A stretch of DNA of 32,000 nt from Candidatus Uhrbacteria bacterium (GTDB lineage Bacteria > Patescibacteriota > Patescibacteriia > 2-12-FULL-60-25): positions 1-32,000 of the forward strand of contig QIKL01000057.1 in the NCBI GenBank assembly GCA_003231955.1, in the 5' to 3' direction. The position numbers and the translations under genes were made by a program. Below the pieces are notes generated by a model. That model ran no database searches. It was not told the origin of the DNA and saw nothing but the letters and a program-made list of their open reading frames with translations. Positions 3,082 to 32,000 of this stretch are shown here, piece by piece (the first letter of the stretch is position 1; every line of letters begins with the position of its first letter).

Positions 3082-3348
3082 TGTACTATCTGGAGGTAAA
3101 AAACTATATTCGGCAGGCCTCCAAAAAAAAAGTATCTTTACGCCACAACGATTCTGGATGAACAACAAAAAAATACCTTTTCATGACGAGGATACACCCA
3201 ACTGTAAATGGAATAAGAAAAATACCGCGGAACGGTAGGTCACGATACAGGACGATATACACGCAAGGAATTTGTGGAGATCAAACCGTCACGGCGCAAA
3301 AATCCAATAAGTATAGACCCCCAATTATAAATGACCTGTCTAATCGTC

Positions 3349-4445: not shown

Positions 4446-5450
4446 CTACGAGCTAAAAATACTTCGCTTGTAGCTCTCTAAATTTTCCAACGCTATCCCC
4501 GTCCCTTTGGCGACGCAGAGTTGCGGTGTGTCAGCGACAAAAACCGAAACACCAGTAGCTTCGCTAAAAAGACGATCAAGGTTACGAAGCTGGGACGATC
4601 CGCCAGAGAGAACCATCCCCTTCTCTATCACATCCGCAGAAAGTTCTGGCGGTGTATTATGCAAAACATCTTTAACCGCATCAATAATCCCCTGCAATTC
4701 ATGTTGAATCGCATCAGTCACATCATCGCTTGTCACAGTAATAATACGCGGAAGGCCCGTAATCATGTCACGTCCCTTAGCTTGCATCTCTAATTTATCT
4801 TCCAAATATAATGCGGATCCAATACGAATTTTAATCTCTTCCGACGTACGCTCACCAATTGCGAGGCCGTATTTACGACGGATGTGTTCTATAACCGCGA
4901 CATCAAGCTTATTGCCGCCGATGCGGACAGAGCTAGAAGAAACGATGCCACCAAGCGAGATAACAGCGATCTCGCTCGTACCACCTCCAATATCCACGAC
5001 CATATGACCAGACGCGGATCCAATGGGAATATCCGCGCCAATCGCGGCCACAACAGGTTCTTTAATAATATACGCGGCGCGCGCACCGGCAGAAATCGTG
5101 GCGTCAATCACAGCGCGCCGTTCGGTCGAAGTAATACCACCAGGGACCGCAATCATGACTTCGGGACGAAAAAAACGCACGCCACCTAACGCTTTATTGA
5201 TAAAATACCGAAGCATTGCCTCAGTCGTACGATAGTCAGCGATAACACCATCCTTAAGCGGCCGCTTCGCAACAATTGTATCGGGCGTGCGTCCGATCAT
5301 CTCTTTTGCTTCCTTTCCCACGGCAAGCACACGTTTATCCGCAAGCGAAATCGCGACGACGGACGGTTCGTTTAGAACAATCCCCTTCTTGGGGATATAC
5401 ACAAGGACAGTCGTCGTCCCAAGGTCAATGCCGATCTTTTTGGCAAACAT
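4446..5450 (-). CDS. mreB: Rod shape-determining actin homologue MreB
   Basis: 334 aa with IGIDLGTTTVLVY, PGGITSTERRAV, VVDIGGGTSEIAVISLGG and VLSGGSSQLRNLD (actin/Hsp70 phosphate and adenosine motifs in MreB order). Confidence 0.95.
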   Translation of the reverse strand: MFAKKIGIDLGTTTVLVYIPKKGIVLNEPSVVAISLADKRVLAVGKEAKEMIGRTPDTIVAKRPLKDGVIADYRTTEAMLRYFINKALGGVRFFRPEVMIAVPGGITSTERRAVIDATISAGARAAYIIKEPVVAAIGADIPIGSASGHMVVDIGGGTSEIAVISLGGIVSSSSVRIGGNKLDVAVIEHIRRKYGLAIGERTSEEIKIRIGSALYLEDKLEMQAKGRDMITGLPRIITVTSDDVTDAIQHELQGIIDAVKDVLHNTPPELSADVIEKGMVLSGGSSQLRNLDRLFSEATGVSVFVADTPQLCVAKGTGIALENLESYKRSIFSS

Positions 5451-5511: not shown

Positions 5512-7704
5512 TTATTTGAATGAAATATTGAACACACGATCAAGTAATGAATCCGTTGTATACTCATAACGAGCATCTCCAAACTGCGATGCGTCCTCAG
5601 ATGGGACCGCAGACTTCAGTGTTGTAGCGAATGAGAGGTCCAGCGTCAATTGCGTATTATCTGCTCCAGCCTGTTTAGGCCAGTCGAGATGATAGCCAGT
5701 TGTCGTCACATTTGCCAGCACAGACGGTGGGAGTTTGTATGTAAACGAAAGTGTACCAGTGTGTCCAGGTTCAATGGACCAGAACGCACCAAAAACCGTC
5801 TTGCCGAGTTCCTTAGTAACATTAACTGTACCAGGTACGGCAACACCTCCCGTCTTGTATCTATCATCCTTCATCGCACCTTTAGAAGAAATAAGCTCCG
5901 AACCTTCTGGAACGTATACGCGTGTATAACTTCGATAGCGCGTGTATCGCCAGTCAATTTTTTTCGCCGTATTTGTGTAGGTCAAAGTTACGGTCGCGAT
6001 CGGATGAGCTGGATTTCGTGCATCGAGTTTATATGTGATCTTTTTTTTCATCACGCCGTCGGTCTTGAGCGCGGCGAGATTCGCATCAATAACCCATACA
6101 AAATCACCAGTTGTGGGCTTAGCTCGCCCAGTCCATCCGCGAGCGTCAAGAATCTTGAGAAAATTTGGATCCGAACTATAAATCATAATCTGCTTGCGAT
6201 TGAGTGCCTTGGTCACGAGACCCGTAATCTCATTCCAACGGGAAGATGGCAATGCTTTAATCTTATCAAGAAGCGCGACGCCAATAGCATTGATAATGTC
6301 CTTACGCTTGGCAAGCGGTATCCCTTGTTTGAGAAATCCTTCTTCGACCTGATATTCAATCTGATTGAAAAAGTTATTTTCATTAAAAACCTGCCCATCC
6401 ACCGTAACTGGTCCCGTGAGATGTAAGAGTGCCTTAAAAAATGCGGGTTCAAGGGCGAGGACAGCTGTGGGCGGGTTCACGAGTGGTTTACCCGTACCGA
6501 CATGGATCTCACGCGTAAAAAAATTACGTTCAGTCTTAGCCGATGTAGGAAAATCCGGTGACCAATTTGCATCGCGCATGTACCACTTCGTAACGCCGAG
6601 ATATTTTGCAATAGGTTCAGGCGGCACCTCGTGCCAATTATAGGAAGCAGGATTATCGATATTATAGACGTCTGTAAACGCAAGATTCGTGAGATTACCC
6701 GCATCAAGGCTCATCGTACCCACATTCCCGATAAACCCGCCACCTGGTCGAAGTTCATCTGAATTCTGAAGGAGAATGAGGTAATGAATCGGCGTCGGAT
6801 ACCCAGCCGCGGGGACGAGTACCTCAACGAGCGGGACACCCTGGTCAAGCGCCTCTTTGAGCTTAGGCAACATATCGGCAACGGGTCGAAGTGCATTCCG
6901 GAGAGGTGCAATAAGATTATTTTGAGGTACACGATTCCAAAGCTCAAGCGCGAGATCTATCTTATCGCGTGCAAGACGAAGATCTGGAAGAGCATTGGAG
7001 AATCGTTCAAGAAGATTATGTTTTTCTGCGGGTGAAAGACTAGAAAAACTGCGTGTGGGCGCAATACCCGTTGTAAGTGATCCAGCAGCTGTGGCACCTC
7101 CACGAAGCGCATTAATCACGACCTCGACCACGTTCAAAACGTCGTGCATCCCATCAAGAGTCTGCGATCCGGCTGTTGCGGCGTCTTCAAGTGCGCGAAT
7201 CTGGACACCCACACCTGGAACGTCACGCCAAAAACCCACATTCTGTAAAGAATCATGCGCGTCGTTCAGATCCATTCGTGCAGATGTGAGGTCAGTCTTG
7301 GCTGCGGCAATATCGAGTTTCTTTATATTGTCCCGTGCCTGCTGAAGTGAACCCTTCGCGGCCTGCGCGGACGTATACGCATGAACCAAAGAAATACCCG
7401 CCGGGACCGTGACAATAAGAAAAATACCCACAATGGCGGCAATGGCCCAACAAAAAATACGAAACCATACCCGCTTTGATTTAGGAGACGGCGGTACGGT
7501 CACGGGATGTTTTGGTTTCGAAATGACTGGTGGCAGAACAGACGATGGAGATATCGGCGGTGACGCAGTCGGCGGTGACGCAGTCGGCGGTGATACTATT
7601 ACAGCAGCCGAACGCGAAGGAGCCTCCGAGGGAAGATCCTTCGGAATTTCAGGAAACGCCGGACAGGTTAAAAAATTCGGCGCAGGATGTTTATCACGAG
7701 CCAT
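5512..7704 (-). CDS. DUF4012 domain membrane-anchored protein
   Basis: 730 aa with a Pro-rich N-terminus, one TM (FCWAIAAIVGIFLIVTV) and the DUF4012 signature YLILLQNSDELRPGGGFIGNVG. Confidence 0.75.
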   Translation of the reverse strand: MARDKHPAPNFLTCPAFPEIPKDLPSEAPSRSAAVIVSPPTASPPTASPPISPSSVLPPVISKPKHPVTVPPSPKSKRVWFRIFCWAIAAIVGIFLIVTVPAGISLVHAYTSAQAAKGSLQQARDNIKKLDIAAAKTDLTSARMDLNDAHDSLQNVGFWRDVPGVGVQIRALEDAATAGSQTLDGMHDVLNVVEVVINALRGGATAAGSLTTGIAPTRSFSSLSPAEKHNLLERFSNALPDLRLARDKIDLALELWNRVPQNNLIAPLRNALRPVADMLPKLKEALDQGVPLVEVLVPAAGYPTPIHYLILLQNSDELRPGGGFIGNVGTMSLDAGNLTNLAFTDVYNIDNPASYNWHEVPPEPIAKYLGVTKWYMRDANWSPDFPTSAKTERNFFTREIHVGTGKPLVNPPTAVLALEPAFFKALLHLTGPVTVDGQVFNENNFFNQIEYQVEEGFLKQGIPLAKRKDIINAIGVALLDKIKALPSSRWNEITGLVTKALNRKQIMIYSSDPNFLKILDARGWTGRAKPTTGDFVWVIDANLAALKTDGVMKKKITYKLDARNPAHPIATVTLTYTNTAKKIDWRYTRYRSYTRVYVPEGSELISSKGAMKDDRYKTGGVAVPGTVNVTKELGKTVFGAFWSIEPGHTGTLSFTYKLPPSVLANVTTTGYHLDWPKQAGADNTQLTLDLSFATTLKSAVPSEDASQFGDARYEYTTDSLLDRVFNISFK
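7556..7593. repeat. In-frame tandem 15-bp repeat (GGCGGTGACGCAGTC x2 plus a partial copy) encoding PPTAS-PPTAS-PP
   Basis: Exact copies at 7556-7570 and 7571-7585, with a partial copy at 7586-7593, inside the Pro-rich N-terminus of the DUF4012 gene. Confidence 0.9.
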
Positions 7705-7819: not shown

Positions 7820-8860
7820 TTACTTAAAGTGTCTACGCATGGCACGTCCAGACACAGATGTCTTATACTTAATCTCGCGACGCTTCGTGAGCATGACAGA
7901 TAGGCGCCCCATTGCCTGGATGCCTGCCATCCAACGACTCGGTCGAAAAATCCCGATAAGAAATTCACTTCCCTGTACCGCAATGACCCATGGCGCGTGC
8001 AAAAGGAGATCACTGACGGTATCATTTTTTATAAGCAACCACATCTGATTACGCGCCATAAAAGTATGTGCAGGGGATGGGGTATGGCGATGAAAAAGAG
8101 CAGAAAGACCACGATACGTCTGTCCATCGTGAGAATGATGCCAGATGATTGCCGCAGGAACGAGACAAACAGGCATACCATATCGCTGCATGCGCCACGC
8201 AAGATCCACATCTTCGAGACATTGAAACATATCTTCATCAAAAAATTCGTCATGGAACTTTAAGTGTAAAATAGCTGAGGCTCGCACGAGCAAGCATGAA
8301 CGGGAAATACCAAAAACCTCAATTTCCTCATCATACTGCCCACGATCCTCTTCCCCAGCTCCGCGATGAAATGCCCGACGTGAACGACAAAACTGGATGC
8401 CAGTTGAATCAATCGTCGAGAAGTGCTCCGATTCACGCGAACCATCTTCCGCGATAATCGCATGGGCACGCAACATCTTAGGTCCGCACGCCATAACTTT
8501 GGGATTCGCATCCATAAAGGATACAAGTGCCGCGAGTGCACCAGGCGCAAACTCAATATCAGGATCCGCAATAAGCACATACCGATACGGCCATACCTCC
8601 TCTGGCCACCGTGTGAGCGCAAGCTGAATCCCTTGGTTATGTGCACGACATAACCCTTGGTTACGAAAGTTACGAAGCGTCGCGACTTCTGGATGCTCAT
8701 GCAAGAGCCAACTTGCAGCGCCGTCAGTCGACGCATTGTCCACCACAGTCACAGAATAGTCCTGAACAGTTTGCTCACCGAGCGACGCAAAAAATGCCGG
8801 TAGATACGCCATGGAATTCCACACAACGATGTTGATGCAGACCTTCTTTGCCTCCTCCAT
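7820..8860 (-). CDS. Glycosyltransferase family 2 (soluble GT-A type)
   Basis: 346 aa. The N-terminus INIVVWNSMAYLPAFFASLGEQTVQDYSVTVVDNASTDG and the later ADPDIEF (DxD) are typical GT2. Confidence 0.85.
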   Translation of the reverse strand: MEEAKKVCINIVVWNSMAYLPAFFASLGEQTVQDYSVTVVDNASTDGAASWLLHEHPEVATLRNFRNQGLCRAHNQGIQLALTRWPEEVWPYRYVLIADPDIEFAPGALAALVSFMDANPKVMACGPKMLRAHAIIAEDGSRESEHFSTIDSTGIQFCRSRRAFHRGAGEEDRGQYDEEIEVFGISRSCLLVRASAILHLKFHDEFFDEDMFQCLEDVDLAWRMQRYGMPVCLVPAAIIWHHSHDGQTYRGLSALFHRHTPSPAHTFMARNQMWLLIKNDTVSDLLLHAPWVIAVQGSEFLIGIFRPSRWMAGIQAMGRLSVMLTKRREIKYKTSVSGRAMRRHFK

Positions 8861-8935
8861 ATTCGGATTTCTATCCTACCCTTCCATCTTCCAGATTGGA
8901 AGTGGACTAAAATAATTTTTATTTCAAAAAAAATA

Positions 8936-10423
8936 CTACGAATCCGCTTTTCGTTTCGGTGAGACTTGAAATTCCAAATTTTTTCCAAACATCATCCGTG
9001 TTTGTGCATCAATCGCTGGAAACGCACCAAAAACCACAAAGGTAATAGGCAAAAGTAACCACTGAAGGACCGTAACGACAATCGTTTGGCGTGGATGCAC
9101 ATGCGCAGGCCGCGGCGGTAAAAGCGTAAACGCCAATCCAGCGGATACAAACGCGCCGACCATAGCAAATCGCATAAGCCACTGCAGAGTAAACGGCGTA
9201 TTCTGAAACACAGCAAATCCACGAAATCGTTCTGGCGCAAACCAGAATGGCAGACGTCCGAGAAGAAAAATAAGAAGCGGCGCCGTAGCCCATGTATACA
9301 TCCCTTCGATCTGTTTCCACATAAACATAAACTTCACGCCGAACGGCATTTTACGATCACGGCTGAAAGCATGGGCCATATACGAAAAATTCTCCACACC
9401 CCACGCCCAGCGGCGGAGCTGTCTATACAACGCCATAAGTGCCTGACTGTACGATCCAGTCATAACCGTATCCATGGAAACTGGAAGATAAATGGGTGTC
9501 ACATGATAATCTCCATGATATTTAAGAAGCCCCTGTAAAAAAATACGTGAGTCTTCACTCACAATATCCTTTTGCCAATACCCCACATCCATAAGCATAT
9601 GGAGACTCATGGAATGCGATGAAAAGGTCATCATGCCTTCTGGGCGTGCAAGCTCGGTCATGAGCCAAAACGTTGTACCAAACATAGCTACGCGCACTGG
9701 CGACGGTGACTCCCACAAGTTGTTGTTATAGAGCGGGATTGGTTGATATGAGCTCCGCGTCGGAGCGGGATTTGTGAGATAGAGATACGTGAGACATGAA
9801 AAATATTGCGGATGAATAATAGTGTCTATATCAAACGATGAAACAATAATATCATCTCTGTCGAAACCCATGGCAAGAACTTTCGGAACAATCTCATGCG
9901 CAGACCAATTGAGGTTGGATCCCTTGCCTGGAATTTCCTCCGGCAGATCTGCAGGATGAATCGTCGTGAATAACGACATGAACCGACCAGAAAACTCTGG
10001 GATCAACACCGCAATATTTGCCTCAAAACGTTCACGGTCACGTGCTTCTCCAGCTAAAACAACAATGAGACGATCCGCGGGATATGCATTCTCAGCCAAG
10101 CGACGGAGCGTTTCGCGAAGAACATGCATTTCCTCTTTATATGTCGGCAAAAAAATGAGATGCCTGATACGATCATATCTCGGTGTAGCCACGGCAAGCG
10201 CCTGCCAATCTTTTTTAATATCATGCCGAAACTTCCACCATGAGATAAGGAGGAATGGCATGTAATACACAACACGAAAAAGCCAATAGAGATCAAAGAT
10301 AATCACAAAATACACAACCAAAAGCGGACGAACGAATGAGAGAACGACTGACGCGATAATCGTGATCCAGATCAATGCACCAGGCAAAATCTCAAGGAAG
10401 CGTTGGGAAAATCGAGAGGACAT
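8936..10423 (-). CDS. Integral-membrane GT2, processive beta-glycan-synthase-like (D, DxD, (S/T)ED, QxxRW)
   Basis: 495 aa with 2 N-terminal and about 4 C-terminal TM segments. Motifs: FLPTYKEE, SFDIDT, VSEDSRIF and QLRRWAWG. Confidence 0.75.
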   Translation of the reverse strand: MSSRFSQRFLEILPGALIWITIIASVVLSFVRPLLVVYFVIIFDLYWLFRVVYYMPFLLISWWKFRHDIKKDWQALAVATPRYDRIRHLIFLPTYKEEMHVLRETLRRLAENAYPADRLIVVLAGEARDRERFEANIAVLIPEFSGRFMSLFTTIHPADLPEEIPGKGSNLNWSAHEIVPKVLAMGFDRDDIIVSSFDIDTIIHPQYFSCLTYLYLTNPAPTRSSYQPIPLYNNNLWESPSPVRVAMFGTTFWLMTELARPEGMMTFSSHSMSLHMLMDVGYWQKDIVSEDSRIFLQGLLKYHGDYHVTPIYLPVSMDTVMTGSYSQALMALYRQLRRWAWGVENFSYMAHAFSRDRKMPFGVKFMFMWKQIEGMYTWATAPLLIFLLGRLPFWFAPERFRGFAVFQNTPFTLQWLMRFAMVGAFVSAGLAFTLLPPRPAHVHPRQTIVVTVLQWLLLPITFVVFGAFPAIDAQTRMMFGKNLEFQVSPKRKADS

Positions 10424-11561: not shown

Positions 11562-11618
11562 GTCATTTGCCTATCAAGTATACTCCGGCTGAGAGCGAAA
11601 CTGCAAAACTACCAAACA

Positions 11619-13724
11619 ATGTCTAAAATCACGCAACAATTCCGTATCGCCGAGATCGAGGTGGCAAAGAGTCTCACTGACGACAAGCTTGCCGGCGTTT
11701 TTCGATTTGAAAACGCCAGCCGTAACCGGACGAGTCCGACCCTCCTTATTATCGTCGACATCCAATCGTCATTATACGTGTACGAGCGCCTACTCGACAC
11801 CTTAAACTCCACAGCCGAACAAGCGCGGCATATGGGATCACAGATGGAGCAGGATCCTTTAGGCCGATTCGAAAAACTTGTCCAACGTCTCAACGAAGCC
11901 GTCGCGAAGTTTACGGAGCAGGAGGCATCACCACTCAACTGGAATCGTATCAACATTTTTATCATTGAGCTTTCGGAAAATCATCTCTGCTTCACTGGAA
12001 CAGGACATCTTATGAATCTCTTCCTGCAAAAACAGGAAGATGGAAGCTTTCGGTCGTTCAATCTGTTTGGATCACTAGAACAGCCAACACAGGCCGATCC
12101 GACCAAACCATTCGCTTCAATCATCTGCGGCGACATTAAACCAGGCGATCTCCTCATGGCAGGTACAACTAACCTTGAGCGTCTACGAAGTGAACTCCGA
12201 CTCAAAGAACGATTAGCAACCCTTCCACCAGTCACAGCAGCGTTGGAGATTAAACAGGATCTAGAACGCCGTGGCATTCCAGATGATTTCATCGCCGCAA
12301 TTATTGCATCCATTGCAGTCAAGGATCCAGAACCTTTACCTACAACACCTATTGAACCAGAACAAAACAAAAGCACACGTTCCATTGAACAGCTGCGCCA
12401 ACAAGAGGAAGAAACCGCCAAACAACTCTCCCCCGCTACACCCGTAAAAGAAACGCTAAACGTGTCCGCCGTACTGACGCAGACAGGAACCTTCGCAAAA
12501 AAAATCACCGTTAAATTTTTTGCTACTCTGCGGCACATTAAAAATTCGCTCATCCGACATGATCCCATGGCTCTTGCGAGCCTACGCGGAATGAATGCAG
12601 GATATGGAACTGTTTTTACTAAACGAAAAAAAACTATTGTCATGGCCGCGGGAGCAATTGTTATCCTTGGCGTCGCCGGTATCCTCTGGTTGAATCATTC
12701 TAAAAAAGTAGCCGCACAAACTGCGGCATGGAATACAACCTACGACAACGCAAGCGATCAACGTAATCGTGCCGAGTCTGATCTCGTCTACGGCAATGAA
12801 GCGCGTGCGCGGATTGAGGTTAACCGAGCCGAGAAACTTATCGCTGATCTGCCAACAGATACGACTGATCGAAAAACCAAGATGAGTAAACTCCAAAAAA
12901 ATCTGAGTAGTCTTAACAAACGAATTAGGAAAGTCGTTCCTGTAAACAATGTCCTTGAGCTCACCACCCTTTCTGCTTCGGCAAATCCCGGAAGTCTTAC
13001 CGCGCCAATTCTTGTTAAGAATACGGCATACGTAGTCGATGAATCTGCAAACCAAATCCTGAAAATCACCCTAGCGACAAAAGAAATTAAACGTATTAGT
13101 CTCCCCCAAGGAACGGGACCAATTGTCGCGAGTGCAGAAGGCAAAAACGGTATTTATTTTATGACGAAATCCGGAAAGCTTATCTCGCTCTCCACCGCCA
13201 CAAACCTCATAAAATCCATAAAATGGTCACATGCAAAAACATCAGAAAATTTAGACACTATCCTTTACAACAATCGATTGTACAGCATGGATCCAGCGGA
13301 TGGACAAATTTGGCGTTCATCACAGTCAGGAAACGGTTTTGGAAATGAATCTGGATATATCAAAGCCGCAAATACACAGATTAACGACGCGGTTGCGCTG
13401 GCTATCGACAGTAACGTCTATGTGCTCCGATCAAACGGCACCGTCGTCCAATTTTATGCTGGAGGGCAGGTAAGTTTCGGCTTGTACCCCATCAGTCCGC
13501 CGCTTCGCGCCGCATCCAATATCTGGACCAAAACAGGTTCGAGTTTACTCTATATCACAGATCCAGCGGATAAACGCATACTCGAATTTGATAAGGATGG
13601 AACCCTTAAAGCCCAATTAACCTCGCCGCAATTCCACGACCTCCGAGATCTCTCGGTAGATGAGGATACAAAGCGCATGATCGTAACCGACGGAAATCGT
13701 CTCTTACTAGTTCCGCTCCCGTAA
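11619..13724 (+). CDS. Membrane protein with a cytoplasmic PP2C/SpoIIE-like domain (signatures degenerate), one TM, a coiled region and an extracytoplasmic 6-bladed beta-propeller (NHL/YncE-like)
   Basis: 701 aa. ICGDIKPGDLLMAGTTNLERL resembles the PPM motif G-x-l-x-pGD-x-lll-x-TDG. The TM is IVMAAGAIVILGVAGILWL. Six repeats are of the type AYVVDESANQILKI / LYITDPADKRILEFDKDG / MIVTDGNRLLLV. The ORF itself is secure; the domain calls are inferential. Confidence 0.55.
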   Translation: MSKITQQFRIAEIEVAKSLTDDKLAGVFRFENASRNRTSPTLLIIVDIQSSLYVYERLLDTLNSTAEQARHMGSQMEQDPLGRFEKLVQRLNEAVAKFTEQEASPLNWNRINIFIIELSENHLCFTGTGHLMNLFLQKQEDGSFRSFNLFGSLEQPTQADPTKPFASIICGDIKPGDLLMAGTTNLERLRSELRLKERLATLPPVTAALEIKQDLERRGIPDDFIAAIIASIAVKDPEPLPTTPIEPEQNKSTRSIEQLRQQEEETAKQLSPATPVKETLNVSAVLTQTGTFAKKITVKFFATLRHIKNSLIRHDPMALASLRGMNAGYGTVFTKRKKTIVMAAGAIVILGVAGILWLNHSKKVAAQTAAWNTTYDNASDQRNRAESDLVYGNEARARIEVNRAEKLIADLPTDTTDRKTKMSKLQKNLSSLNKRIRKVVPVNNVLELTTLSASANPGSLTAPILVKNTAYVVDESANQILKITLATKEIKRISLPQGTGPIVASAEGKNGIYFMTKSGKLISLSTATNLIKSIKWSHAKTSENLDTILYNNRLYSMDPADGQIWRSSQSGNGFGNESGYIKAANTQINDAVALAIDSNVYVLRSNGTVVQFYAGGQVSFGLYPISPPLRAASNIWTKTGSSLLYITDPADKRILEFDKDGTLKAQLTSPQFHDLRDLSVDEDTKRMIVTDGNRLLLVPLP

Positions 13725-15279: not shown

Positions 15280-15972
15280 TCACGATGCGATAACCGTTCC
15301 TACGAACGTCTTTTTGTCCAGAATCTTCTGGAGATTTTTCAGATCCATCCCTTTAGTGATCACGACCTCCATTGCCCACCGGTCGGCAAGTTTGGATGCA
15401 ACTGGATCAAATGGCGTATTAGCACCCGGCTCCCATTTTGATCCCACGATTTTTCTAAATGCCTTCCAACTAATCTTGTCAATCGGTTGCGCACCTTTGT
15501 ACTTTGAAGGGTCTCTATCATACACTGCATCGATATTCGTCAAATTGATAATCCGCGTCGCATTATATTTTTTAGCGAGGCGTACAGCAATATAATCCGT
15601 ACTCCATCCCGGCTTCCATCCAGCAGCAATAAGCACCGCGTCGTGCCAAGCAAGCGGCTTCGTCGGGTCCTTCACCACGCGATGAGTTGCCTCTTTCCGA
15701 AAAATTGCGCGGAGCAAATGCCCATTTAGCCGTGTCGCATGGATACCAAGCCAATCCACATCTTCACGAGTAAGACAAACGATCCCCCTCGCAGCCTTCT
15801 GATATTCTCTCGCTGTATGCCCACCGCCAACCACGATAATAAAACGCTGTCCGCACGCAATTTCATGCCGAATCAATTTGTAAAACCGTTTAAGAAACGC
15901 AATGTCAATGCCGGTTTTTGGAACCACAATAGAACCACCGAGTGAGATAACGACGGGCGAAAGATGTTTCAT
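15280..15972 (-). CDS. pyrH: Archaeal-type uridylate (UMP) kinase, amino-acid-kinase fold
   Basis: VVISLGGSIVVP...FIIVVGGGHTAREY...TDYIAVRLAKKYNATRIINLTNIDAVYDRDP is collinear with archaeal PyrH as I remember it (Pyrococcus type). The start is taken at the internal ATG (MKHLSP); the track ORF extends to 16017. Confidence 0.75.
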   Translation of the reverse strand: MKHLSPVVISLGGSIVVPKTGIDIAFLKRFYKLIRHEIACGQRFIIVVGGGHTAREYQKAARGIVCLTREDVDWLGIHATRLNGHLLRAIFRKEATHRVVKDPTKPLAWHDAVLIAAGWKPGWSTDYIAVRLAKKYNATRIINLTNIDAVYDRDPSKYKGAQPIDKISWKAFRKIVGSKWEPGANTPFDPVASKLADRWAMEVVITKGMDLKNLQKILDKKTFVGTVIAS

Positions 15973-16003
15973 AATATAAGAACCCCAAGGTAAGATTGAT
16001 CTG

Positions 16004-16342
16004 TCACTCTTTAACAAGTGCGTTTACAAACCACGAAACCAACCAGAATACCAGCGATCCCCAAAATGCAGCCGTAAATCCTGTCACATCAAACCCTTTA
16101 ACAATAGAGGACGCGAGCCAAAACATAAGTGCATTAATAATGAATGTGAAGAGTCCAAGCGTCAAAATATTAACCGGTAGAGTTAAAAGGAGAAGAATTG
16201 GACGAATGACCGCATTCACGAGACCAATAACGAGAGCGGCAATAAGTGCGCTCCAAAAATTTGCTACCTCTACACCGGGAACGACATAGGCAACGATCAT
16301 GACGGAAAACGCAGAAAGGAACCAGCGGATGAGAATAAACAT
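16004..16342 (-). CDS. Small 4-TM membrane protein of the 'phage holin 4_2 / YvlD-like' family
   Basis: IRWFLSAFSVMIVAYVVPGVEV...ALVIGLVNAVIRPILLLLTLPVNILTLGLFTFIINALMFWLAS is typical of that family. The start is taken at the internal ATG one nt after the xseB stop; the track ORF extends to 16417 and overlaps xseB. Confidence 0.7.
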   Translation of the reverse strand: MFILIRWFLSAFSVMIVAYVVPGVEVANFWSALIAALVIGLVNAVIRPILLLLTLPVNILTLGLFTFIINALMFWLASSIVKGFDVTGFTAAFWGSLVFWLVSWFVNALVKE

Positions 16343-16343
16343 G

Positions 16344-16571
16344 TCAATCACCAGAATATTTCTTTTTAATCTCTTTAACCTTATTTTCAGCAAGTGCAAG
16401 GCGCTTTTTGAGAGCATCTGCGATCGTCATAGCTCGCTCAAACTTTTGAAGACCCTGATCCAAATCAATGTTGCCTTCTTCAAACCAAGTTGCGATTGAC
16501 TCAAGCTCGGCAAAGCCCTTAGCCGCATCAATATTTTTAGATTCTTTTTTTGGAGGCATATCAGTCATCAT
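16344..16571 (-). CDS. xseB: Exodeoxyribonuclease VII small subunit
   Basis: FAELESIATWFEEGNIDLDQGLQKFERAMTIADALKKRL is the XseB pattern. It lies directly downstream of xseA. The track start is TTG at 16580; the ATG at 16571 is preferred. Confidence 0.85.
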   Translation of the reverse strand: MMTDMPPKKESKNIDAAKGFAELESIATWFEEGNIDLDQGLQKFERAMTIADALKKRLALAENKVKEIKKKYSGD

Positions 16572-24268: not shown

Positions 24269-26440
24269 TTATAGCTCATCAATACTGCGAAGGAATGACG
24301 TTGGAGGTTTTTTACTCAATGTGCCCGATGACTTCCACACTGTCTTTGTTGAAGAGCGCTCACCATCCCTTCCGATCCGAATCGTTGGTTCTTCGTACCC
24401 TCCTTCCCAACTCCATTCTTGATCCTGAGAATTTCTGACTTTGGACCTTTGATGTTGAAATGAATTCTGATCTCGCATCTCGCGGATTTCCATTCGTTCC
24501 ATAAATCTCGACGAAACTTCTTCAACAAATAACGATGGTTGGTTCAATGTGAGTGCGTCATAACCACTCGTAAGCGGATATACGAGAAAAAGTTTGCGCC
24601 GCGCGCGCGTGATCGCAACGTAGAAAAGTCGACGTTCCTCTTCAATTCCACCTTCCTCGACCAAAGCTCGCTTATTAGGAAAAGCCGTATCCGCAAGATG
24701 AATGAGAAAGACCGTATCCCACTCAAGACCTTTTGCCTGATGAATGGTCGAAAGTACAATACGCTCCTCCTCACCTCCCCCGCTTTTATCACGTCCAGCG
24801 AGCACATCATCATACAGTGCAATATCCGAAAGAAATGCAGCCGCATCTGGGTACCCTTCCGCGAAGAGAACAAGCTGCTCCAGATCCTCAAGCCGATCTT
24901 TCCAATCGGGATACTCACGTTCGAGATATCCTCGGTATGACGAATCAAGAATTGCACGGAGCATGTTTCCTGGTGCGGGCGCACGCTGCACGACTACCGA
25001 TGCGATTTCAATAAAATCTAGCCAGCCTTTTTCCGCACGTGACGGGAGAAGCGAATGCGTATCAAGATCGATAACCGTCTTGAGATCCGAGAATCCGCGG
25101 ACACGTGAAATCACGACGGACGCAGTCACCGCACCGATGCCAGTTTGCATATTAAGCGTACGAAGCCATGCAGCCTCATCTTTCGGATTTTGAAAAATCC
25201 GCAGATATGCAATCGCGTCTTTAATGTGCGCTCGTTCAAAAAATTTCATCCCGCCGCGATATTCGTACGGCACATCGCGCGAAAGCAATTCAAATTCTAG
25301 CGCCTGCGAATGTGCAGATGAACGAAAGAGCACAGCCATATTTCCAAGTGCCACACCTTCGGCACGCATCGCAAGGATCTGCTCAGCAACAAACCGAGCC
25401 TCCTGTCGCGCAGATGCCGTGGCGACAAGAACTGGCTTTTCCCCTTTCGCTTTAACCGGTACCAGTTCCTTCTCAAACTGATCAACGTTATGTGCAAGCG
25501 AATTGTTTGCAAGATCGAGAATCTCCGGAACAGACCGATAGTTCGTAAGGAGTTTGTATATCTTCACGTCCGCCCATTGATTCGGAAAATTCAAAATATT
25601 CTTCACGTCCGCGCCGCGGAACGCATAAATTGATTGTGCGTCATCTCCGACAACGAGAACATTAGCGCTAAGAGATCCCAAGCTCCGGACGATCCGCGCC
25701 TGCAAAGCATTCGTATCCTGATACTCATCAACAAGTACATAACGAAATTGCGATGCAATCCGCGGCCCAATTTCTGGAAGATCTAAAAGACGAACCCAAT
25801 TCATAAGAAGATCATCAAAATCCATAGCATTCGCCGCCATCTTCCGATCGCGATACATACACCCAATCTCCTCAATCTCGCTGTTAAACGGCACAAAATT
25901 TGGATGTTTGAGCTCAAGTGCATCCGTAACCGGCATTAGCATATTCCGCGCATACGAGAGAATATTCAAAACGACATTTGCCGTTGGAAAACGGCGCGCT
26001 TTAGGATCAATCCGAAGTTCCTTCATCACGGCTTTGATGAGACTTTGCGCATCACCTTGGTCCAAAATCGAAAACGTATGTATGTATCCCAACGCTGGCG
26101 CATACTTCCGTAAAAAGCGGTTCGCAATTGAATGAAATGTCCCGCCCCAGATACCGCGTGCGTCTCCGCCAACAAGAAGACCAACACGGTCAAGCATCTC
26201 ACGCGCCGCTTTGTTGGTGAACGTAAGAAGGAGAATCTGATTCGGATCCACACCCTGATCGACAAGATACGCAACGCGATATGTGACGGTCCGTGTCTTC
26301 CCAGACCCCGCACCCGCGAGAACAAGACACGGTCCGTCGGCATGCAACACGACGTCTAGTTGCTCCTGATTCAATTCCTTCTGATAATCAATAATTCGGT
26401 GGCCATGATTACTGGACCCATGTAAAACAAAAACAGACAT
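24269..26440 (-). CDS. uvrD: UvrD/PcrA-type superfamily 1A DNA helicase
   Basis: 723 aa with LAGAGSGKT (Walker A), VLVDEYQDTN (motif II), GDDAQSIYAFRGA, LTNYRS, TIHQAKGLEWD and YVAITRAR. Confidence 0.92.
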   Translation of the reverse strand: MSVFVLHGSSNHGHRIIDYQKELNQEQLDVVLHADGPCLVLAGAGSGKTRTVTYRVAYLVDQGVDPNQILLLTFTNKAAREMLDRVGLLVGGDARGIWGGTFHSIANRFLRKYAPALGYIHTFSILDQGDAQSLIKAVMKELRIDPKARRFPTANVVLNILSYARNMLMPVTDALELKHPNFVPFNSEIEEIGCMYRDRKMAANAMDFDDLLMNWVRLLDLPEIGPRIASQFRYVLVDEYQDTNALQARIVRSLGSLSANVLVVGDDAQSIYAFRGADVKNILNFPNQWADVKIYKLLTNYRSVPEILDLANNSLAHNVDQFEKELVPVKAKGEKPVLVATASARQEARFVAEQILAMRAEGVALGNMAVLFRSSAHSQALEFELLSRDVPYEYRGGMKFFERAHIKDAIAYLRIFQNPKDEAAWLRTLNMQTGIGAVTASVVISRVRGFSDLKTVIDLDTHSLLPSRAEKGWLDFIEIASVVVQRAPAPGNMLRAILDSSYRGYLEREYPDWKDRLEDLEQLVLFAEGYPDAAAFLSDIALYDDVLAGRDKSGGGEEERIVLSTIHQAKGLEWDTVFLIHLADTAFPNKRALVEEGGIEEERRLFYVAITRARRKLFLVYPLTSGYDALTLNQPSLFVEEVSSRFMERMEIREMRDQNSFQHQRSKVRNSQDQEWSWEGGYEEPTIRIGRDGERSSTKTVWKSSGTLSKKPPTSFLRSIDEL

Positions 26441-26492: not shown

Positions 26493-26521
26493 AAAATAAA
26501 AGCCGCCTCAATGAGACGGCT
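26493..26521 (-). terminator. Intrinsic terminator downstream of the receiver gene
   Basis: Minus strand reads AGCCGTC-tcattga-GGCGGCT (7-bp stem including one G-U) followed by TTTATTTT. It starts 31 nt after the receiver stop and lies before uvrD. Confidence 0.6.
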
Positions 26522-26552
26522 CCACGTGATAAAAAGAACAATACGAGCGATG

Positions 26553-26936
26553 TTAGTCAACTGAAAGACCAAGTACTCGCAGAACGATCTCTGGTACTTC
26601 GCACTTAATCGTGCAGGTATCATCGCAACCTTCACGAATCAATGCACCCTGAAAGTGTACATTACTCGACGACGCGATGATCGTGCCTGTGAACCCGCTT
26701 GCGCGAATCTCTCGGACAAGATCAATTGTCGTCGCTCCTTCATGTGCCGGTACATGACCATCCATGACTATGAGCTTAATCTTGGGATACGCACGAAACA
26801 TCTCACGACCTTGTTTAACGGTATAGGCCGAGAGGACCCGTACACGTCCTTTGAGCATGAGTTGATAACACTCCTGCAACCTATATTCGTCTTCGACAGA
26901 AAGGATAATCGGGAGATCATCCAGATGATCTGACAT
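26553..26936 (-). CDS. Stand-alone response-regulator receiver domain (CheY-like, no output domain)
   Basis: 127 aa with an acidic beta1 end (ILSVEDE), a phospho-acceptor candidate in KLIVMDGHVP, Ser in TIIASSS and Lys in CTIKCEVP. The SD AAGGAG lies 5 nt upstream of the ATG. The gene starts 11 nt after the upstream gene. Confidence 0.8.
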   Translation of the reverse strand: MSDHLDDLPIILSVEDEYRLQECYQLMLKGRVRVLSAYTVKQGREMFRAYPKIKLIVMDGHVPAHEGATTIDLVREIRASGFTGTIIASSSNVHFQGALIREGCDDTCTIKCEVPEIVLRVLGLSVD

Positions 26937-26947
26937 ACAAACTCCTT

Positions 26948-28249
26948 TTAGAGAAACTTAGCGGCGGAGATGAGGCGTTTTTTGGCGAGAGTCCAATCAT
27001 CTACTGTCATCGCATATTCAGCTCCGCGAATGAGACATTCAACTTTTGCCTTAACAGGCACGTCAAGTGTGGCGTCGGAACACCGATCAAGACGATGGAG
27101 AAACGATGCGAGTAACCGTTCAACGGCCGCAAACTCTACAGGCGCCATATCACGCGTGATCTGAATCGTCTTTTCACGCTTATTACATGGAATACTTCGA
27201 CGACGTTTAGTCTCTTCCCGTCTGAGACGGGCAAGAAGAAATGACAATCGCGAGATAACTTCAATCTGAAGCACATCCAGCACGAACACCCAGCGAATAC
27301 CACGACGAAGCTTCGCACACTGTATGCGCAAAATGCGCAGATCACCGACCTTGCATGTCTCAATCGCGGCATTGAGATCCTTGACCGTATGCGCAGCGTT
27401 CTTACAGAACGGACGCGTTCTAATCTCTGTGAAAGCCTCACGATATTCACAAAGCCGACGACGGATCTTTCGAAGGAATGCCTTCTTTGTACGGGATTCC
27501 GACATCGATACACGAATTATCCATTGCTGGAGTATCCCACGTGAACGCGATTTTGTATCAACGCGCACATCGTCCCATAGCTCACGATATAGATTCATGT
27601 GCGATTGAATGAACACATAAACCTGAATAGTCCGCCGATCCATACACGTTGAAAGCCGCGGAATATCCGTAAGTCGCTTGAGAAGATGCCCAATGCCCGC
27701 GCCCGAAACCATAGCTGCTGCGGGAGGGTTATTCCGCCCAATACTATCCGTTGTGATCATTCCACGCATGAACTGACTTCGCGCCACTGTCTTGTGTCTG
27801 GCACGCTTGATCTCATACCGTGAAACGAGTAAGGACTGCATCTCCAGCAACTCACGCTTTTCATCGGGTTCGTACATACCAGAAACGAGCATAAAACGGA
27901 CGAATGCACGAGCGGTTTCGATGTCCTCACGAACTTCTCGCATCTCTCCCGCCCCATCTGAATCATGAACGGCATACTGACACACGGCATGACGCCCAGA
28001 ACGAAGTAGGTCGTACAAGTCATCATATCGTGCATGCGTCGATGCTCCTGCAGTTTCTTTTGCACGGGTATGATTAGCACGCCACAACGTTCCAGCTGGA
28101 ATAAAGATGTTCCCGGCCTTTCCGTTTGCAACTCTTAACGTCGCAGGGCGCTGTTGGATTAAATCGTTGGACGGAATGACCTGGACAGATATCCAAAGAC
28201 GTCCGCCACGGTTCTGTATGATCTTGATGACTTGAAAATACGTTTGCAC
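26948..28249 (-). CDS. Orphan arginine-rich protein (433 aa from GTG), function unknown
   Basis: Track ORF 26948..28327. I prefer the in-frame GTG at 28247-28249 because AGGAGG (plus 28254-28259) lies 4 nt upstream. By hand count it has 56 Arg of 433 residues and 9 Cys. There is a short beta-looking N-terminal segment; the rest looks helical. No Walker, HATPase or HTH motif recognised. Confidence 0.7.
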   Translation of the reverse strand: MQTYFQVIKIIQNRGGRLWISVQVIPSNDLIQQRPATLRVANGKAGNIFIPAGTLWRANHTRAKETAGASTHARYDDLYDLLRSGRHAVCQYAVHDSDGAGEMREVREDIETARAFVRFMLVSGMYEPDEKRELLEMQSLLVSRYEIKRARHKTVARSQFMRGMITTDSIGRNNPPAAAMVSGAGIGHLLKRLTDIPRLSTCMDRRTIQVYVFIQSHMNLYRELWDDVRVDTKSRSRGILQQWIIRVSMSESRTKKAFLRKIRRRLCEYREAFTEIRTRPFCKNAAHTVKDLNAAIETCKVGDLRILRIQCAKLRRGIRWVFVLDVLQIEVISRLSFLLARLRREETKRRRSIPCNKREKTIQITRDMAPVEFAAVERLLASFLHRLDRCSDATLDVPVKAKVECLIRGAEYAMTVDDWTLAKKRLISAAKFL

Positions 28250-28302
28250 ATTACCTCCTCTTATTAGAAAGTCCGTCTTCCAGTATCTGAGTGTCAGAAA
28301 GG

Positions 28303-28319
28303 TATCGAAAAATTCGATA
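28303..28319. promoter_or_regulatory. Perfect 7-3-7 palindrome TATCGAA-aaa-TTCGATA upstream of the orphan gene
   Basis: Lies in the 100-nt mltG/orphan-gene spacer, 54-70 nt upstream of the GTG. It overlaps weak promoter-like hexamers (TTGCTT ... ; TTTCGA-N17-GATACT). Confidence 0.4.
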
Positions 28320-28349
28320 TAAAGCAAGTTAGATATCGTCCTTCTCTAA

Positions 28350-29342
28350 TTAATTTTTAAATGCTTTTTGGCGATTCGCCTGATGCTCTGCAAAAGTCGT
28401 CGCAAAATAAGTCTTTCCATTTGTATCTGTCAAAAAATATCGATACTCGGTTCGTGTCGGATGAAGCGCAGCCATAAGAGCATCATCACCTGGATTCGAA
28501 ATCGGACCTGGTGGAAGTCCCGTATGTTTATAGGTGTTGTACAATGAATCTCTGGCAAGATCGTGTGCCGTTGGACGCGTCCGTTTCGCATGCGTGACAT
28601 AATTCACGGTTGCATCGCTCTGGAGTGGCATCCCGTCCTTGAGACGATTGAGAAAAATACCCGCCACAATCTTACGGTCATTACTGTTCGAAACTTCTTT
28701 CTCCACAATTGATGCAAGGATAACAATATCCCGCAATGTCCTTCCCTGTCTTGCTGCAACCTCAGCGATCCCAGGAGCACGCTTTGCGAATTCATTAAGC
28801 TGTTTTTTGATAAGTGATTGTGGAAGTTGATCGCCGTATACGCGATAGGTGTCTGGAAAGAGATATCCTTCAAAAGAGGCACCAACAGGAAGATTGCCGA
28901 GGAATGAATATGTATCTCGCAACTCCTTAGGAATCGTCTCCGGAATCGACGCATCGTACGGTGCTAATGCCTCATCAATTCTCGCAACAGTCCAGCCTTC
29001 GGGAATCGTAATCTGAAGTTCATTCTCTGGCGGACCTAAAATAAACAGACGCATGATCATCTTATAGCTCGTGTGCACCGGAATCTTATACACGCCAGTC
29101 CTCAAAAAATTCGCACGGTGATCAAATAGCTTGACATAATATCGAAATCCAGTAGCGGAATCGATAATTCCAAGCTTCGCGAGTTCATCCGCGGCTTGTG
29201 ATGCACTCCATCCATCTTTGAGTGTAACCGTAATCAAATGCGACGCATCGCCCGTATTAAGCCATGCACGCGGAATAAACCATGCCAGAAAAAATCCGAC
29301 AGCAATAAATGCGATACCTAGCAAGAGAAGTATTTTTTTCAT
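28350..29342 (-). CDS. mltG: Endolytic murein transglycosylase MltG (YceG family)
   Basis: N-terminal TM and the YceG core (ILASIVEKEV, GIFLNRLKDGMPLQSDATVNY, YNTYKHTGLPPGPISNPG). The start is taken at the ATG at 29342, which forms an ATGA overlap with the PAP2 stop. The track start is TTG at 29357. Confidence 0.88.
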   Translation of the reverse strand: MKKILLLLGIAFIAVGFFLAWFIPRAWLNTGDASHLITVTLKDGWSASQAADELAKLGIIDSATGFRYYVKLFDHRANFLRTGVYKIPVHTSYKMIMRLFILGPPENELQITIPEGWTVARIDEALAPYDASIPETIPKELRDTYSFLGNLPVGASFEGYLFPDTYRVYGDQLPQSLIKKQLNEFAKRAPGIAEVAARQGRTLRDIVILASIVEKEVSNSNDRKIVAGIFLNRLKDGMPLQSDATVNYVTHAKRTRPTAHDLARDSLYNTYKHTGLPPGPISNPGDDALMAALHPTRTEYRYFLTDTNGKTYFATTFAEHQANRQKAFKN

Positions 29343-29893
29343 GTATGACGATGCCAACGTGCCGATCGATTAATATCAGCGCACATAAGCTCATGATGAA
29401 TCTTTCGCACAACGGCAAACGAGAGAAGACCGACAAAAAATCCACCGAGGATATCCGTCGGGAAATGCACACCGACAGCCATACGTCCGTACGCAACAAA
29501 TCCAGCGATGACAAGCGAGAGTATGCCAAGCGTTCGGTTAGCATAGAATAAGGCAAAGGCAATAGCAAAGGCCGTAGCCGTATGGCCAGACGGAAACGAT
29601 GTATTGAATGGTGGCGGGATAAGAAGCACAACACTGTGTGTAGCAAGATATGGACGTATACGTTGGATGAAAAACGCAATCAATACCGTAAATGTAAGAG
29701 CTAAGAGTGCGCTCCATGCAGCCTCAATCACTGCGTGCCGTTCATGCACACGCCGTGAACCGAACATCACAATAGCCAACACAATGTTCACAAGAATGAA
29801 CCAGCGTGCAAAAAAGACTGCCAGCGCAATCATCCACGGCGTCGAGAGAACGACATTCTGAATGCCGATAAGAATCTGAATCTCAAATGGCAT
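29339..29893 (-). CDS. PAP2-family phosphatase (undecaprenyl-diphosphatase/BcrC-like)
   Basis: 184 aa and polytopic. PAP2 motifs: IQRIRP (KxxxxxxRP-like), FPSGHT and GRMAVGVHFPTD (SRxxxxxHxxxD-like). Confidence 0.85.
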   Translation of the reverse strand: MPFEIQILIGIQNVVLSTPWMIALAVFFARWFILVNIVLAIVMFGSRRVHERHAVIEAAWSALLALTFTVLIAFFIQRIRPYLATHSVVLLIPPPFNTSFPSGHTATAFAIAFALFYANRTLGILSLVIAGFVAYGRMAVGVHFPTDILGGFFVGLLSFAVVRKIHHELMCADINRSARWHRHT

Positions 29894-30570: not shown

Positions 30571-32000
30571 TCAAATCAGCGGTTTTCCCGTCATCTCCGA
30601 CGGTTGTGGAATCTCCATAAGTTTCAAAATTGTCGGTGCAACGTCCGCAAGCATACCAACAGGCGTCGTCATCGAAAGATCAGCGCCTATCACATCTCCA
30701 ATCGGCGCACGCATCCCCTCAAACTGCTTCCCGATGATAAGAAGCGGAACAGGATTAGTGGAGTGCTCCGTATCCATCTCGCCAGTTACAAGATTCTTCA
30801 CTTCCTCAGCGTTTCCATGATCGGCGGTGATAATGCAGACACCACCCGTCGCAAGCGATGCATTTACAATCATACCCATCGCCTTATCCACGGTCTCACA
30901 CGCCGTAATCGTCGCCTTCTCATCGCCTGTATGACCAACCATATCTGCATTCGCAAAATTAAGAAGAATGAGATCGTATGTTCCTTTACCAATTTCTTGC
31001 ACAACACGAGCAGCGATCTGCATAGCAGACATTTCCGGTGCCTTATCGTACGTCGAAACACGAGGACTTGGAATGATTACGCGATCTTCGCCAGGAAATT
31101 CTTGTTCAATCATGCCGTTCATAAAAAATGTGACATGCGCATATTTTTCTGTCTCTGCAATGTGAAGCTGTTTATATCCCGCGTCCGACACGACTTTGGC
31201 AAGACAATTCTCAATGGTCTGCGGCGGATATGCAATCGTAACAGGAAGATCCTTCTCATATTCGGTCATCGTCACAAAAAATAAATCTGTAATCTGTGAC
31301 CGAGGAAATTTTTCAAAACTCGGAAGAACAAACGCTTTCGTGATCTCGCGAGCACGATCCGAACGAAAATTAAAAAAGATGACCGCATCGCCTGACGCAA
31401 TGGTTGCGACGGGTTTACCTTTGTTCTCAATCACAGTCGGGACGATATGTTCGTCATAGATTTTCTGATCATAAGAACGTTGAATCGCCTGCATCGCCGA
31501 TGGCGCTAAAACATCGGCTTTTCCAAGCGTCATTGCGTTATAAGCTTTTTGAACGCGATCCCACCGGTTGTCGCGATCCATCGCATAATAACGTCCAGCA
31601 ATCGTCGCGATCTTCCCCACCTTAAGCTCACGAATTTTATCTTCAAGCTCTTTGATAAATCCAATAGCGCTATTAAAAATGGTGTCGCGACCATCTAAAA
31701 ACGCATGAATAAAAACGCGGTTAAACTTCTGCTGTTTACAAAAATCCATAAGCGCATAGCAATGCGCGGAACTTGAATGAACACCACCAGGGCTCATAAG
31801 TCCCATGAAATGAATCTTGCCTTGCGTCTTCTGACAATGAGCGATTGCATCAAGAAATACCTTATTCTTAAAAAATGCCCCATTCTCAATAGCAAGATCA
31901 ATACGTGGCAAACTTTGAAAAAAAATACGCCCAGCGCCAATAGTGAGATGACCGACCTCCGAATTTCCCATCACGCCCCACGATAATCCTACGGAAGACG
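30571..32000 (-). CDS. gpmI: 2,3-bisphosphoglycerate-independent phosphoglycerate mutase (5' end outside the window)
   Basis: MGNSEVGHLTIGAGR, FLDGRDT, ADHGNAE and further iPGM motifs. The frame stays open upstream of the track start (..SSVGLSWGV MGNSEVGH) to position 32000, so the gene is N-terminally truncated by the window edge. Confidence 0.93.
   Translation of the reverse strand, partial: SSVGLSWGVMGNSEVGHLTIGAGRIFFQSLPRIDLAIENGAFFKNKVFLDAIAHCQKTQGKIHFMGLMSPGGVHSSSAHCYALMDFCKQQKFNRVFIHAFLDGRDTIFNSAIGFIKELEDKIRELKVGKIATIAGRYYAMDRDNRWDRVQKAYNAMTLGKADVLAPSAMQAIQRSYDQKIYDEHIVPTVIENKGKPVATIASGDAVIFFNFRSDRAREITKAFVLPSFEKFPRSQITDLFFVTMTEYEKDLPVTIAYPPQTIENCLAKVVSDAGYKQLHIAETEKYAHVTFFMNGMIEQEFPGEDRVIIPSPRVSTYDKAPEMSAMQIAARVVQEIGKGTYDLILLNFANADMVGHTGDEKATITACETVDKAMGMIVNASLATGGVCIITADHGNAEEVKNLVTGEMDTEHSTNPVPLLIIGKQFEGMRAPIGDVIGADLSMTTPVGMLADVAPTILKLMEIPQPSEMTGKPLI

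Follow-up and report, generated by a model that had tools for sequence, protein, structure and literature searches.

Single-domain receivers of the CheY-like and Spo0F-like type (PF00072) are a very well known kind of signalling protein, and the partners described for such receivers include HPt, CheZ, CheC/CheX/FliY, Rap and Spo0E. The Candidate Phyla Radiation (CPR) contains, in addition, many lineage-specific families of ‘conserved hypothetical’ proteins. Here we describe a locus that can be compared with all of these, in a stretch of 32,000 nucleotides (nt) from a Candidatus Uhrbacteria bacterium (contig QIKL01000057.1, positions 1 to 32,000; hereafter the window). Between mltG and uvrD lies a 433-aa open reading frame (ORF) with a GTG start, here named X, which is followed by a 127-aa receiver ORF. 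The original prediction, which a model had made from this DNA, took the two genes for a self-contained cassette inserted into a housekeeping array and X for an uncharacterized partner of the receiver. Our analysis points instead to a resident and vertically inherited gene with an optional receiver as its neighbour, a reading which, taken as a whole, we regard as on balance the probable one and whose evolutionary and anatomical part we hold with considerable confidence.

The 127-aa ORF resembles the PF00072 receivers in that it aligns end to end with the AdeR, DrrD and TorR structures and with Pfam and NCBIfam profiles and carries the acidic pair, the phospho-acceptor Asp, the β4 Ser and the β5 Lys. 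It differs from them in remaining below the family's gathering score, in presenting a subfamily signature (VMDGxVP…IIASSS…GCD), in the lack of the Pro which usually follows the Lys (here Lys111), and in that no cognate kinase, HPt or output domain was found among the ORFs scanned within the 32 kb. Like the described receiver partners, X is found immediately ahead of a receiver gene, with which it seems to form an operon, and like HPt, CheZ, Rap and Spo0E it has a largely helical structure, but it has neither a sequence nor a fold match to any of them nor an invariant His, no recognized phosphatase motif was seen in it by eye, and most of its homologues have no receiver nearby. With the conserved hypothetical families of the CPR it has in common its restriction to Patescibacteria, its lack of annotation, its place in a housekeeping array and its apparently vertical inheritance, whereas a confident full-length model without a fold match in the PDB and an evolution markedly faster than that of its neighbours set it apart. 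The 127-aa protein is a new and divergent example of an extremely familiar type of molecule, and X belongs to no described family; as a system the pair is ordinary, an orphan gene that is conserved and, downstream of it, an orphan receiver that is facultative.

The X family and its place in a housekeeping array

X gives no match in Pfam, NCBIfam, PHROGs, PADLOC or the sequences of the PDB, where the best that phmmer and a profile of the family returned were designed helical bundles (E 0.06). When applied to 67 aligned members of the family, Pfam and NCBIfam produced scattered single-member noise only, and Pfam on ten length variants, in which fused domains were sought, produced one weak DUF2096_N match only. 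Nine close homologues of 36–100% identity were found, and when a profile was run against 1.84 billion cluster representatives the family grew to 217 proteins at E ≤ 1e-3, of which 68 reach E ≤ 1e-30, each standing for a cluster at 50% identity. Among the matches listed most are ~400–440 aa in length. The sources, where named, are all Patescibacteria, the genomes being those of Candidatus Uhrbacteria and unclassified Patescibacteria, and in the source records the proteins are unnamed or called ‘hypothetical protein’. X is single-copy in every locus. One 2-kb contig (L015, CAZXFK010000137.1) is labelled ‘uncultured Gammaproteobacteria bacterium’; since its X is 94% identical to that of L014, a Patescibacteria-type contig, and has the same neighbours, L015 has probably been mis-binned.

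AlphaFold (AF2) models X with a predicted local distance difference test score (pLDDT) of 74 from nine sequences and of 95.4 from 67 sequences, the latter with a predicted template modelling score (pTM) of 0.90. The model comprises an N-terminal β domain (approximately residues 1–75) and an all-helical body that includes two helices of ~50 residues (175–228 and 304–350). A short hairpin bears the best conserved motif of the family, D168-x2-G171-R172-x-N174-P, and is followed by R192. Over the 67 members N174 and R192 are invariant, D168, G171, R172, P280 and W320 are kept in at least 95%, and the conserved polar residues are chiefly Arg, Lys, Asn and Asp; no His is invariant in this set, the best being H87 (74%) and H217 (48%). 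X is strongly basic (isoelectric point (pI) 10.3, 12.9% Arg), and so is its family, with a median pI of 9.8 and values above 9 in 62 of the 67 members. Foldseek found nothing at E ≤ 1e-3 for the model either in the PDB, where TM-scores are ≤ 0.25 among the 50 matches listed, or among the viral folds of BFVD; hhalign of four segments of X gave no significant indication of an internal duplication, and the protein has no transmembrane segment. Several motifs were considered by eye and rejected: a DDxxD at residues 76–80 is not conserved as a feature of the family, the spacing is wrong for the HEPN Rx4–6H, and a Fic motif and a P-loop are absent. The statement that X falls in no recognizable family is thus borne out by every one of the Pfam, NCBIfam, PHROGs, PADLOC, PDB and Foldseek checks, while the doubt that the ORF might be neither conserved nor real is answered by the 217 clusters and by the quality of the model. 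Judged from its homologues, X is a real and constrained protein that founds an unannotated, Patescibacteria-restricted family.

The neighbourhoods of X were recovered from metagenome and genome contigs and comprise 24 X-carrying loci in ~15 independent contexts. The gene order (gpmI–nth–PAP2–)mltG–X–uvrD(–metK–ppiB…) recurs in eight independent lineages (the window, L001/L010, L002, L003–5, L008/9, L018, L019/20 and L026/27), across which the identity to the window X falls to ~30% and in all of which uvrD is found downstream of X. Over the same comparisons UvrD retains 59–76% and MltG 44–68% identity, which indicates that X evolves faster than its neighbours even though it is kept in place. 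These observations bear directly on the proposal that X and the receiver came to lie between mltG and uvrD as one cassette, mobile or acquired by horizontal transfer. The unit does have its own Shine-Dalgarno (SD) sequences, terminator and spacer palindrome, and the junctions beside X do take foreign DNA in relatives, as in the case of a diversity-generating retroelement (DGR) in L026. However, comparison of the mltG–uvrD junction among relatives, which had been suggested as a check for insertion, finds X at the same position in all eight lineages at ~30–64% identity, with only the receiver varying between presence and absence. The GC content of the X–receiver unit (0.47–0.52) matches that of its neighbours, no direct or inverted repeats flank it, the window contains no tRNA or Rfam family, no integrase or transposase was matched by Pfam among the window ORFs scanned, and no relatives of X occur in viral contigs, phage genomes or plasmids. 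Because X keeps its mltG–uvrD position in eight lineages and these hallmarks of mobility were not found, the cassette reading is effectively refuted for X; that the pair arrived together in this way is extremely improbable, and at most the receiver alone is a variable element. From the comparison of contigs, X has long been a fixed component of an ancient array of housekeeping genes, gpmI–nth–PAP2–mltG–X–uvrD–metK.

Lineages of the array differ in what lies at the two junctions of X. On the upstream side mltG adjoins X directly in four of them (the window, L001, L002 and L019), while two ORFs are interposed in L003–5, a 464-aa ORF in L008 and a complete DGR in L026; the short L018 contig stops before mltG is reached. 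In the X–uvrD slot are found a receiver in the window (127 aa) and in L002 (118 aa), an unrelated acidic 155-aa ORF in L001, which has the X most similar to that of the window (64%), a 73-aa ORF in L003–5, an opposite-strand DUF4349 gene in L019, and nothing in L008, L018 and L026. The DGR of L026 (L026:2120–4888) occupies the equivalent of the window spacer at 28250–28349 and comprises a 259-aa target gene, a variable repeat (2766–2895), a template repeat (3295–3424), bAvd on the minus strand and a reverse transcriptase, with 18 of the 18 mismatches between the two repeats located at template adenines. X was considered as the target of this element and rejected, the variable repeat lying in the 259-aa gene upstream.

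Two further observations concern the array. Small acidic proteins stand directly behind the basic X in L001 (9421–9888), L002 (9283–9639), L003 (9302–9523) and the window (26553–26936), with pI values of 4.05, 4.63, 5.74 and 5.5 respectively; except for the two receivers these proteins are mutually unrelated, and their shared acidity may be fortuitous or may hint at selection for acidic partners of X in this slot. At the head of the array L001 (2488–5638) and L002 (2579–5726) carry the gene for cofactor-independent phosphoglycerate mutase twice, as tandem paralogues of 523 and 525 aa, and the equivalent region of the window (30571–31974), which is cut by the window end, holds at least one copy.

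Outside the array X is found in two other synteny groups. In the second it lies behind dnaA–dnaN and a penicillin-binding protein (PBP) gene (L006 and L011), and in the third either behind the gene for a giant Big_7/β-helix surface protein (L007 and L012–L014) or beside an ornithine carbamoyltransferase (OTCase) gene (L007 and L021). No gene is common to all three groups.

The downstream receiver and its relation to X

The 127-aa ORF matches Pfam Response_reg with an E-value of 6e-4 and 20.3 bits, where the gathering score is 30.2, and so does not reach the curated threshold, while NCBIfam aligns a series of response regulators over residues ~10–121, AdeR among them at E 4e-5. The orthologue in L002, which is 45–47% identical to the window receiver, makes an independent Response_reg match of 19.2 bits, and a profile built from the two sequences retrieves from the PDB nothing but response-regulator receiver structures (AdeR at E 3e-5, DrrD and TorR). 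Of the active-site residues, E15/D16, D59, the Ser at the end of β4 (IIASSS) and K111 are present and align with D12/D13, D57, T87 and K109 of CheY, K111 with an offset of one residue, and they are conserved in L002 and P0160. In sequence the protein stands very much alone: a word-index search with the receiver finds itself alone, and the two-sequence profile finds four proteins, all of them from metagenomes or metagenome-assembled genomes and the sole one with a named source from Patescibacteria. A 135-aa protein of Candidatus Staskawiczbacteria, called ‘response regulator’ by NCBI, carries all three elements of the subfamily signature. The retention of the acidic pair, Asp, Ser and Lys, together with sub-threshold profile matches that corroborate one another, upholds the earlier view of the small ORF as a plausible functional receiver, to which we would add that it is a divergent one. 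Its predicted (β/α)5 fold derives solely from the end-to-end profile alignments to solved receivers.

The distance between X and the receiver is 11 nt in the window and 19 nt in L002, with an SD for the receiver within each gap, and the tight linkage of the two genes with a terminator behind them, as it had been described, was found. Such operon-like linkage in two lineages is what would be expected were X a dedicated, uncharacterized partner of the receiver (phosphodonor, phosphatase, effector or target) within one signalling module, and the phospho-acceptor pocket that the receiver has kept, as well as the failure to find a kinase or output domain nearby among the scanned window ORFs, would accord with this. 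The receivers at this position are moreover orthologues while the X proteins that precede them are only 41% identical; that they share a slot in spite of this divergence implies long retention of the receiver beside X and is therefore some evidence for a functional link in these lineages. Beyond them the association is not maintained. A receiver profile applied to the 24 X-carrying loci places a receiver behind X in just two of the ~15 independent contexts, the window and L002, so that two of the eight array lineages have one in the X–uvrD slot and the approximately seven contexts beyond the array have none near X. Queries of loci L001–L015 with CheY and Spo0F by phmmer also returned no receivers, although they missed that of the window as well, and the widest alignment (A2) is too diverse for pattern-based searches of the loci. 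By UvrD and MltG identity the window, L001 and L002 are nearly equidistant, yet the slot of L001, next to the most similar X, holds an unrelated ORF. Conversely, the Staskawiczbacteria gene of the same receiver subfamily adjoins a gene of the 5-enolpyruvylshikimate-3-phosphate (EPSP)-synthase family (murA/aroA-like), and no X-family gene is found on that contig. Nor does X offer the features of a partner, since in addition to the want of an invariant His neither it nor 66 of its relatives give a HisKA, HATPase, HPt, CheZ, CheC/X, Spo0E or Rap/TPR match in Pfam or NCBIfam.

The claim that X is a dedicated partner of the receiver has thus largely to be given up, and the consistent adjacency to receivers that was to be looked for among homologues is found in so few contexts as to approach the ‘never linked’ which the original prediction had named as telling against itself. 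Because receivers occur beside X in the window and L002 only, the slot has changed in L001, a receiver of the subfamily exists without X and partner features were not found, we infer that the conserved function of X is independent of the receiver. These comparisons give no support to an obligate partnership of X and the receiver, and a dedicated one, as a single signalling module, is decidedly unlikely; a lineage-specific regulatory link between the two is possible.

Anatomy of the locus and other features of the window

The genes are read from the minus strand in the order mltG, spacer, X, gap, receiver, hairpin and uvrD (Table 1), and the elements first described, namely the spacer of 100 nt, the SDs, the GTG start, the 433- and 127-aa ORFs, the gap of 11 nt and the hairpin, are all present on that strand. 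As had been claimed, no kinase or HPt protein is apparent, there being no Pfam match to HisKA, HATPase_c or HPt among the ORFs scanned across the window. Some of the window ORFs were assigned solely through matches to syntenic genes in L001/L002, and three, of ~150–700 aa, are without any Pfam match.

Table 1. Features of the mltG–X–uvrD region in the window.
Feature	Position	Strand	Basis or description
mltG (YceG family), upstream anchor	28350..29357	-	Pfam YceG, E 8.6e-79
mltG–X spacer, 100 nt	28349..28250	-	Read from sequence
Putative promoter-like element upstream of X	28289..28327	-	TTGCTT, 17 nt, TACCTT, 3 nt, GACACTC
Perfect palindrome TATCGAAaaaTTCGATA (TATCGAA-aaa-TTCGATA), overlaps the -35/-10 spacer	28303..28319	.	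Read from sequence
Shine-Dalgarno AAGAGGAGG of X, 4 nt ahead of the GTG at 28249	28254..28262	-	Read directly
X, 433 codons, GTG start	26948..28249	-	TAA stop at 26950..26948
Shine-Dalgarno AAGGAG of the receiver, within the 11-nt gap	26942..26947	-	Read directly
Single-domain receiver, 127 aa, putative divergent CheY-like REC	26553..26936	-	Profile matches and active-site residues
Intrinsic-terminator-like hairpin and T-run, receiver–uvrD	26489 (approx.)..26523	-	11-bp stem with 6 GC pairs, 3-nt loop, then TTTTATTTTAT
uvrD/pcrA helicase gene, downstream anchor	24269..26440	-	Pfam UvrD-helicase, E 1e-73; UvrD_C, E 7.5e-60

The start of X deserves comment, as the JGI and NCBI gene calls begin at a TTG at 28327 (region 28247–28327, minus strand) and give a protein of 459 aa. 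A GTG-CAA start behind an SD is also found in the relatives L001 and L002, and the alignment of homologues starts at the GTG-encoded Met; for these reasons the 459-aa call is probably too long and the GTG at 28249 is the better supported start. The longer call would place both the palindrome and the promoter-like motif within coding sequence.

The spacer palindrome to which the original prediction drew attention is perfect, as stated, but the weight given to it did not hold. Perfect 7+7 palindromes with loops of 0–8 nt number 40 in the window against ~18 in shuffles, with ~0.1 expected per 100 nt, so that one such palindrome is not significant by itself, and at the equivalent place in L001 and L002 it is absent. 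The spacer RNA folds no better than its shuffles (z = -0.9). The layout of the promoter-like element recurs in L001 (TTGCCC, 17 nt, TAACGT, 3 nt, GTCACTC), while L002 has in common with the window just the TAnCnT box, 3 nt and GACACTC.

Elsewhere in the window, a 701-aa ORF without a Pfam match (11619–13724) lies on the plus strand, opposite to nearly all genes, and is overlapped by several shorter minus-strand ORFs (11609–13144), which leaves its coding strand ambiguous. A 730-aa DUF4012 protein is encoded at 5512–7704 on the minus strand between mreB and two family-2 glycosyltransferase genes (with 4446–5450 and 7820–10423), and this group may be an envelope-biogenesis cluster. In a housekeeping stretch beside xseA, the minus-strand gene at 16004–16417 encodes a membrane protein of the Phage_holin_4_2 family (E 2e-37) and overlaps by 14 nt the start of an amino-acid-kinase-family gene (15280–16017, minus strand).

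A proposed role for X and its significance

The model that we favour regards X as a vertically inherited, single-copy chromosomal gene, fixed in the array, at both junctions of which lineage-specific genes would have been gained and lost, the receiver being an accessory occupant in the window and in one other lineage. The short gaps with their SDs, the hairpin behind the receiver and the promoter-like motif shared upstream suggest that X and the receiver are probably co-transcribed, the promoter lying in the spacer between mltG and X and the hairpin before uvrD ending the transcript. The phosphate of the receiver would be supplied either by a small-molecule donor or by a kinase whose gene lies elsewhere; the receiver may modulate X in the two lineages that possess it, though X would not need the receiver. 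As X is conserved and strongly basic, we would guess that it binds nucleic acid or some other phosphate-rich ligand; the likeliest such polymer would be nucleic acid, contacted through the Arg/Lys-rich helices and the cluster of D168, G171, R172, N174 and R192. DNA-metabolism genes flank X in two of the synteny groups (nth and uvrD in the one, dnaA and dnaN in the other). This functional suggestion is tentative, with a chance well short of even.

Several points weigh against the favoured model or parts of it. The ~15 neighbourhoods sample only a small part of a family that comprises 217 clusters, and the persistence of orthologous receivers in the same slot of two lineages with such divergent X proteins is some evidence that the two genes are functionally linked there. 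The putative promoter comes from the alignment of three genomes alone, and a scan for the sigma-70 consensus does not call it. With regard to function, neither a basic pI nor the proximity of DNA-repair genes is more than a weak and generic indication, and cell-wall genes (mltG, the class-A PBP gene and an ORF whose NlpC/P60 match is weak and sub-threshold) are found near X as often as DNA genes.

In a different proposal X would be no nucleic-acid binder but a cytoplasmic scaffold or regulator of envelope growth or division whose basic helices contact acidic membrane or envelope-synthesis proteins. Envelope genes adjoin X in all three synteny groups (PAP2 and mltG in the first, the class-A PBP in the second, the Big_7/β-helix giant and the NlpC/P60-like ORF in the third), X has long helices like many division scaffolds, and it evolves fast relative to uvrD. 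Yet X has no transmembrane segment and matches none of the known families of division or elongation proteins, which gives no encouragement to this idea; the envelope neighbours vary among the groups and in some cases lie on the opposite strand, and unrelated housekeeping genes are packed together in the small genomes of Patescibacteria, so we consider an envelope role for X unlikely. A bolder idea, and a long shot, is that X represents a Patescibacteria-specific family whose fold has no counterpart among solved structures and which, in at least some lineages, a single-domain receiver controls directly once phosphorylated, as its output or target; if true, response-regulator effectors would gain a new class, with nucleic acid or the cell envelope as its site of action, in organisms that otherwise possess hardly any signalling machinery.

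For the favoured model of a resident X with an optional receiver, the first consequence is a correction: a unit that looked self-contained by virtue of its SDs, terminator and palindrome is an ancient resident gene with an optional neighbour, and sequence punctuation alone is no sign of insertion. The junctions flanking X form a small but reproducible hotspot for accessory genes (a receiver, small acidic ORFs, a DGR) within streamlined genomes. The X family, which is widespread, is now defined well enough for work at the bench, with an alignment, a model and a conserved site, D-x2-GR-x-NP…R, and families of this sort account for a large part of what is unexplained in the core of ultra-small bacteria.

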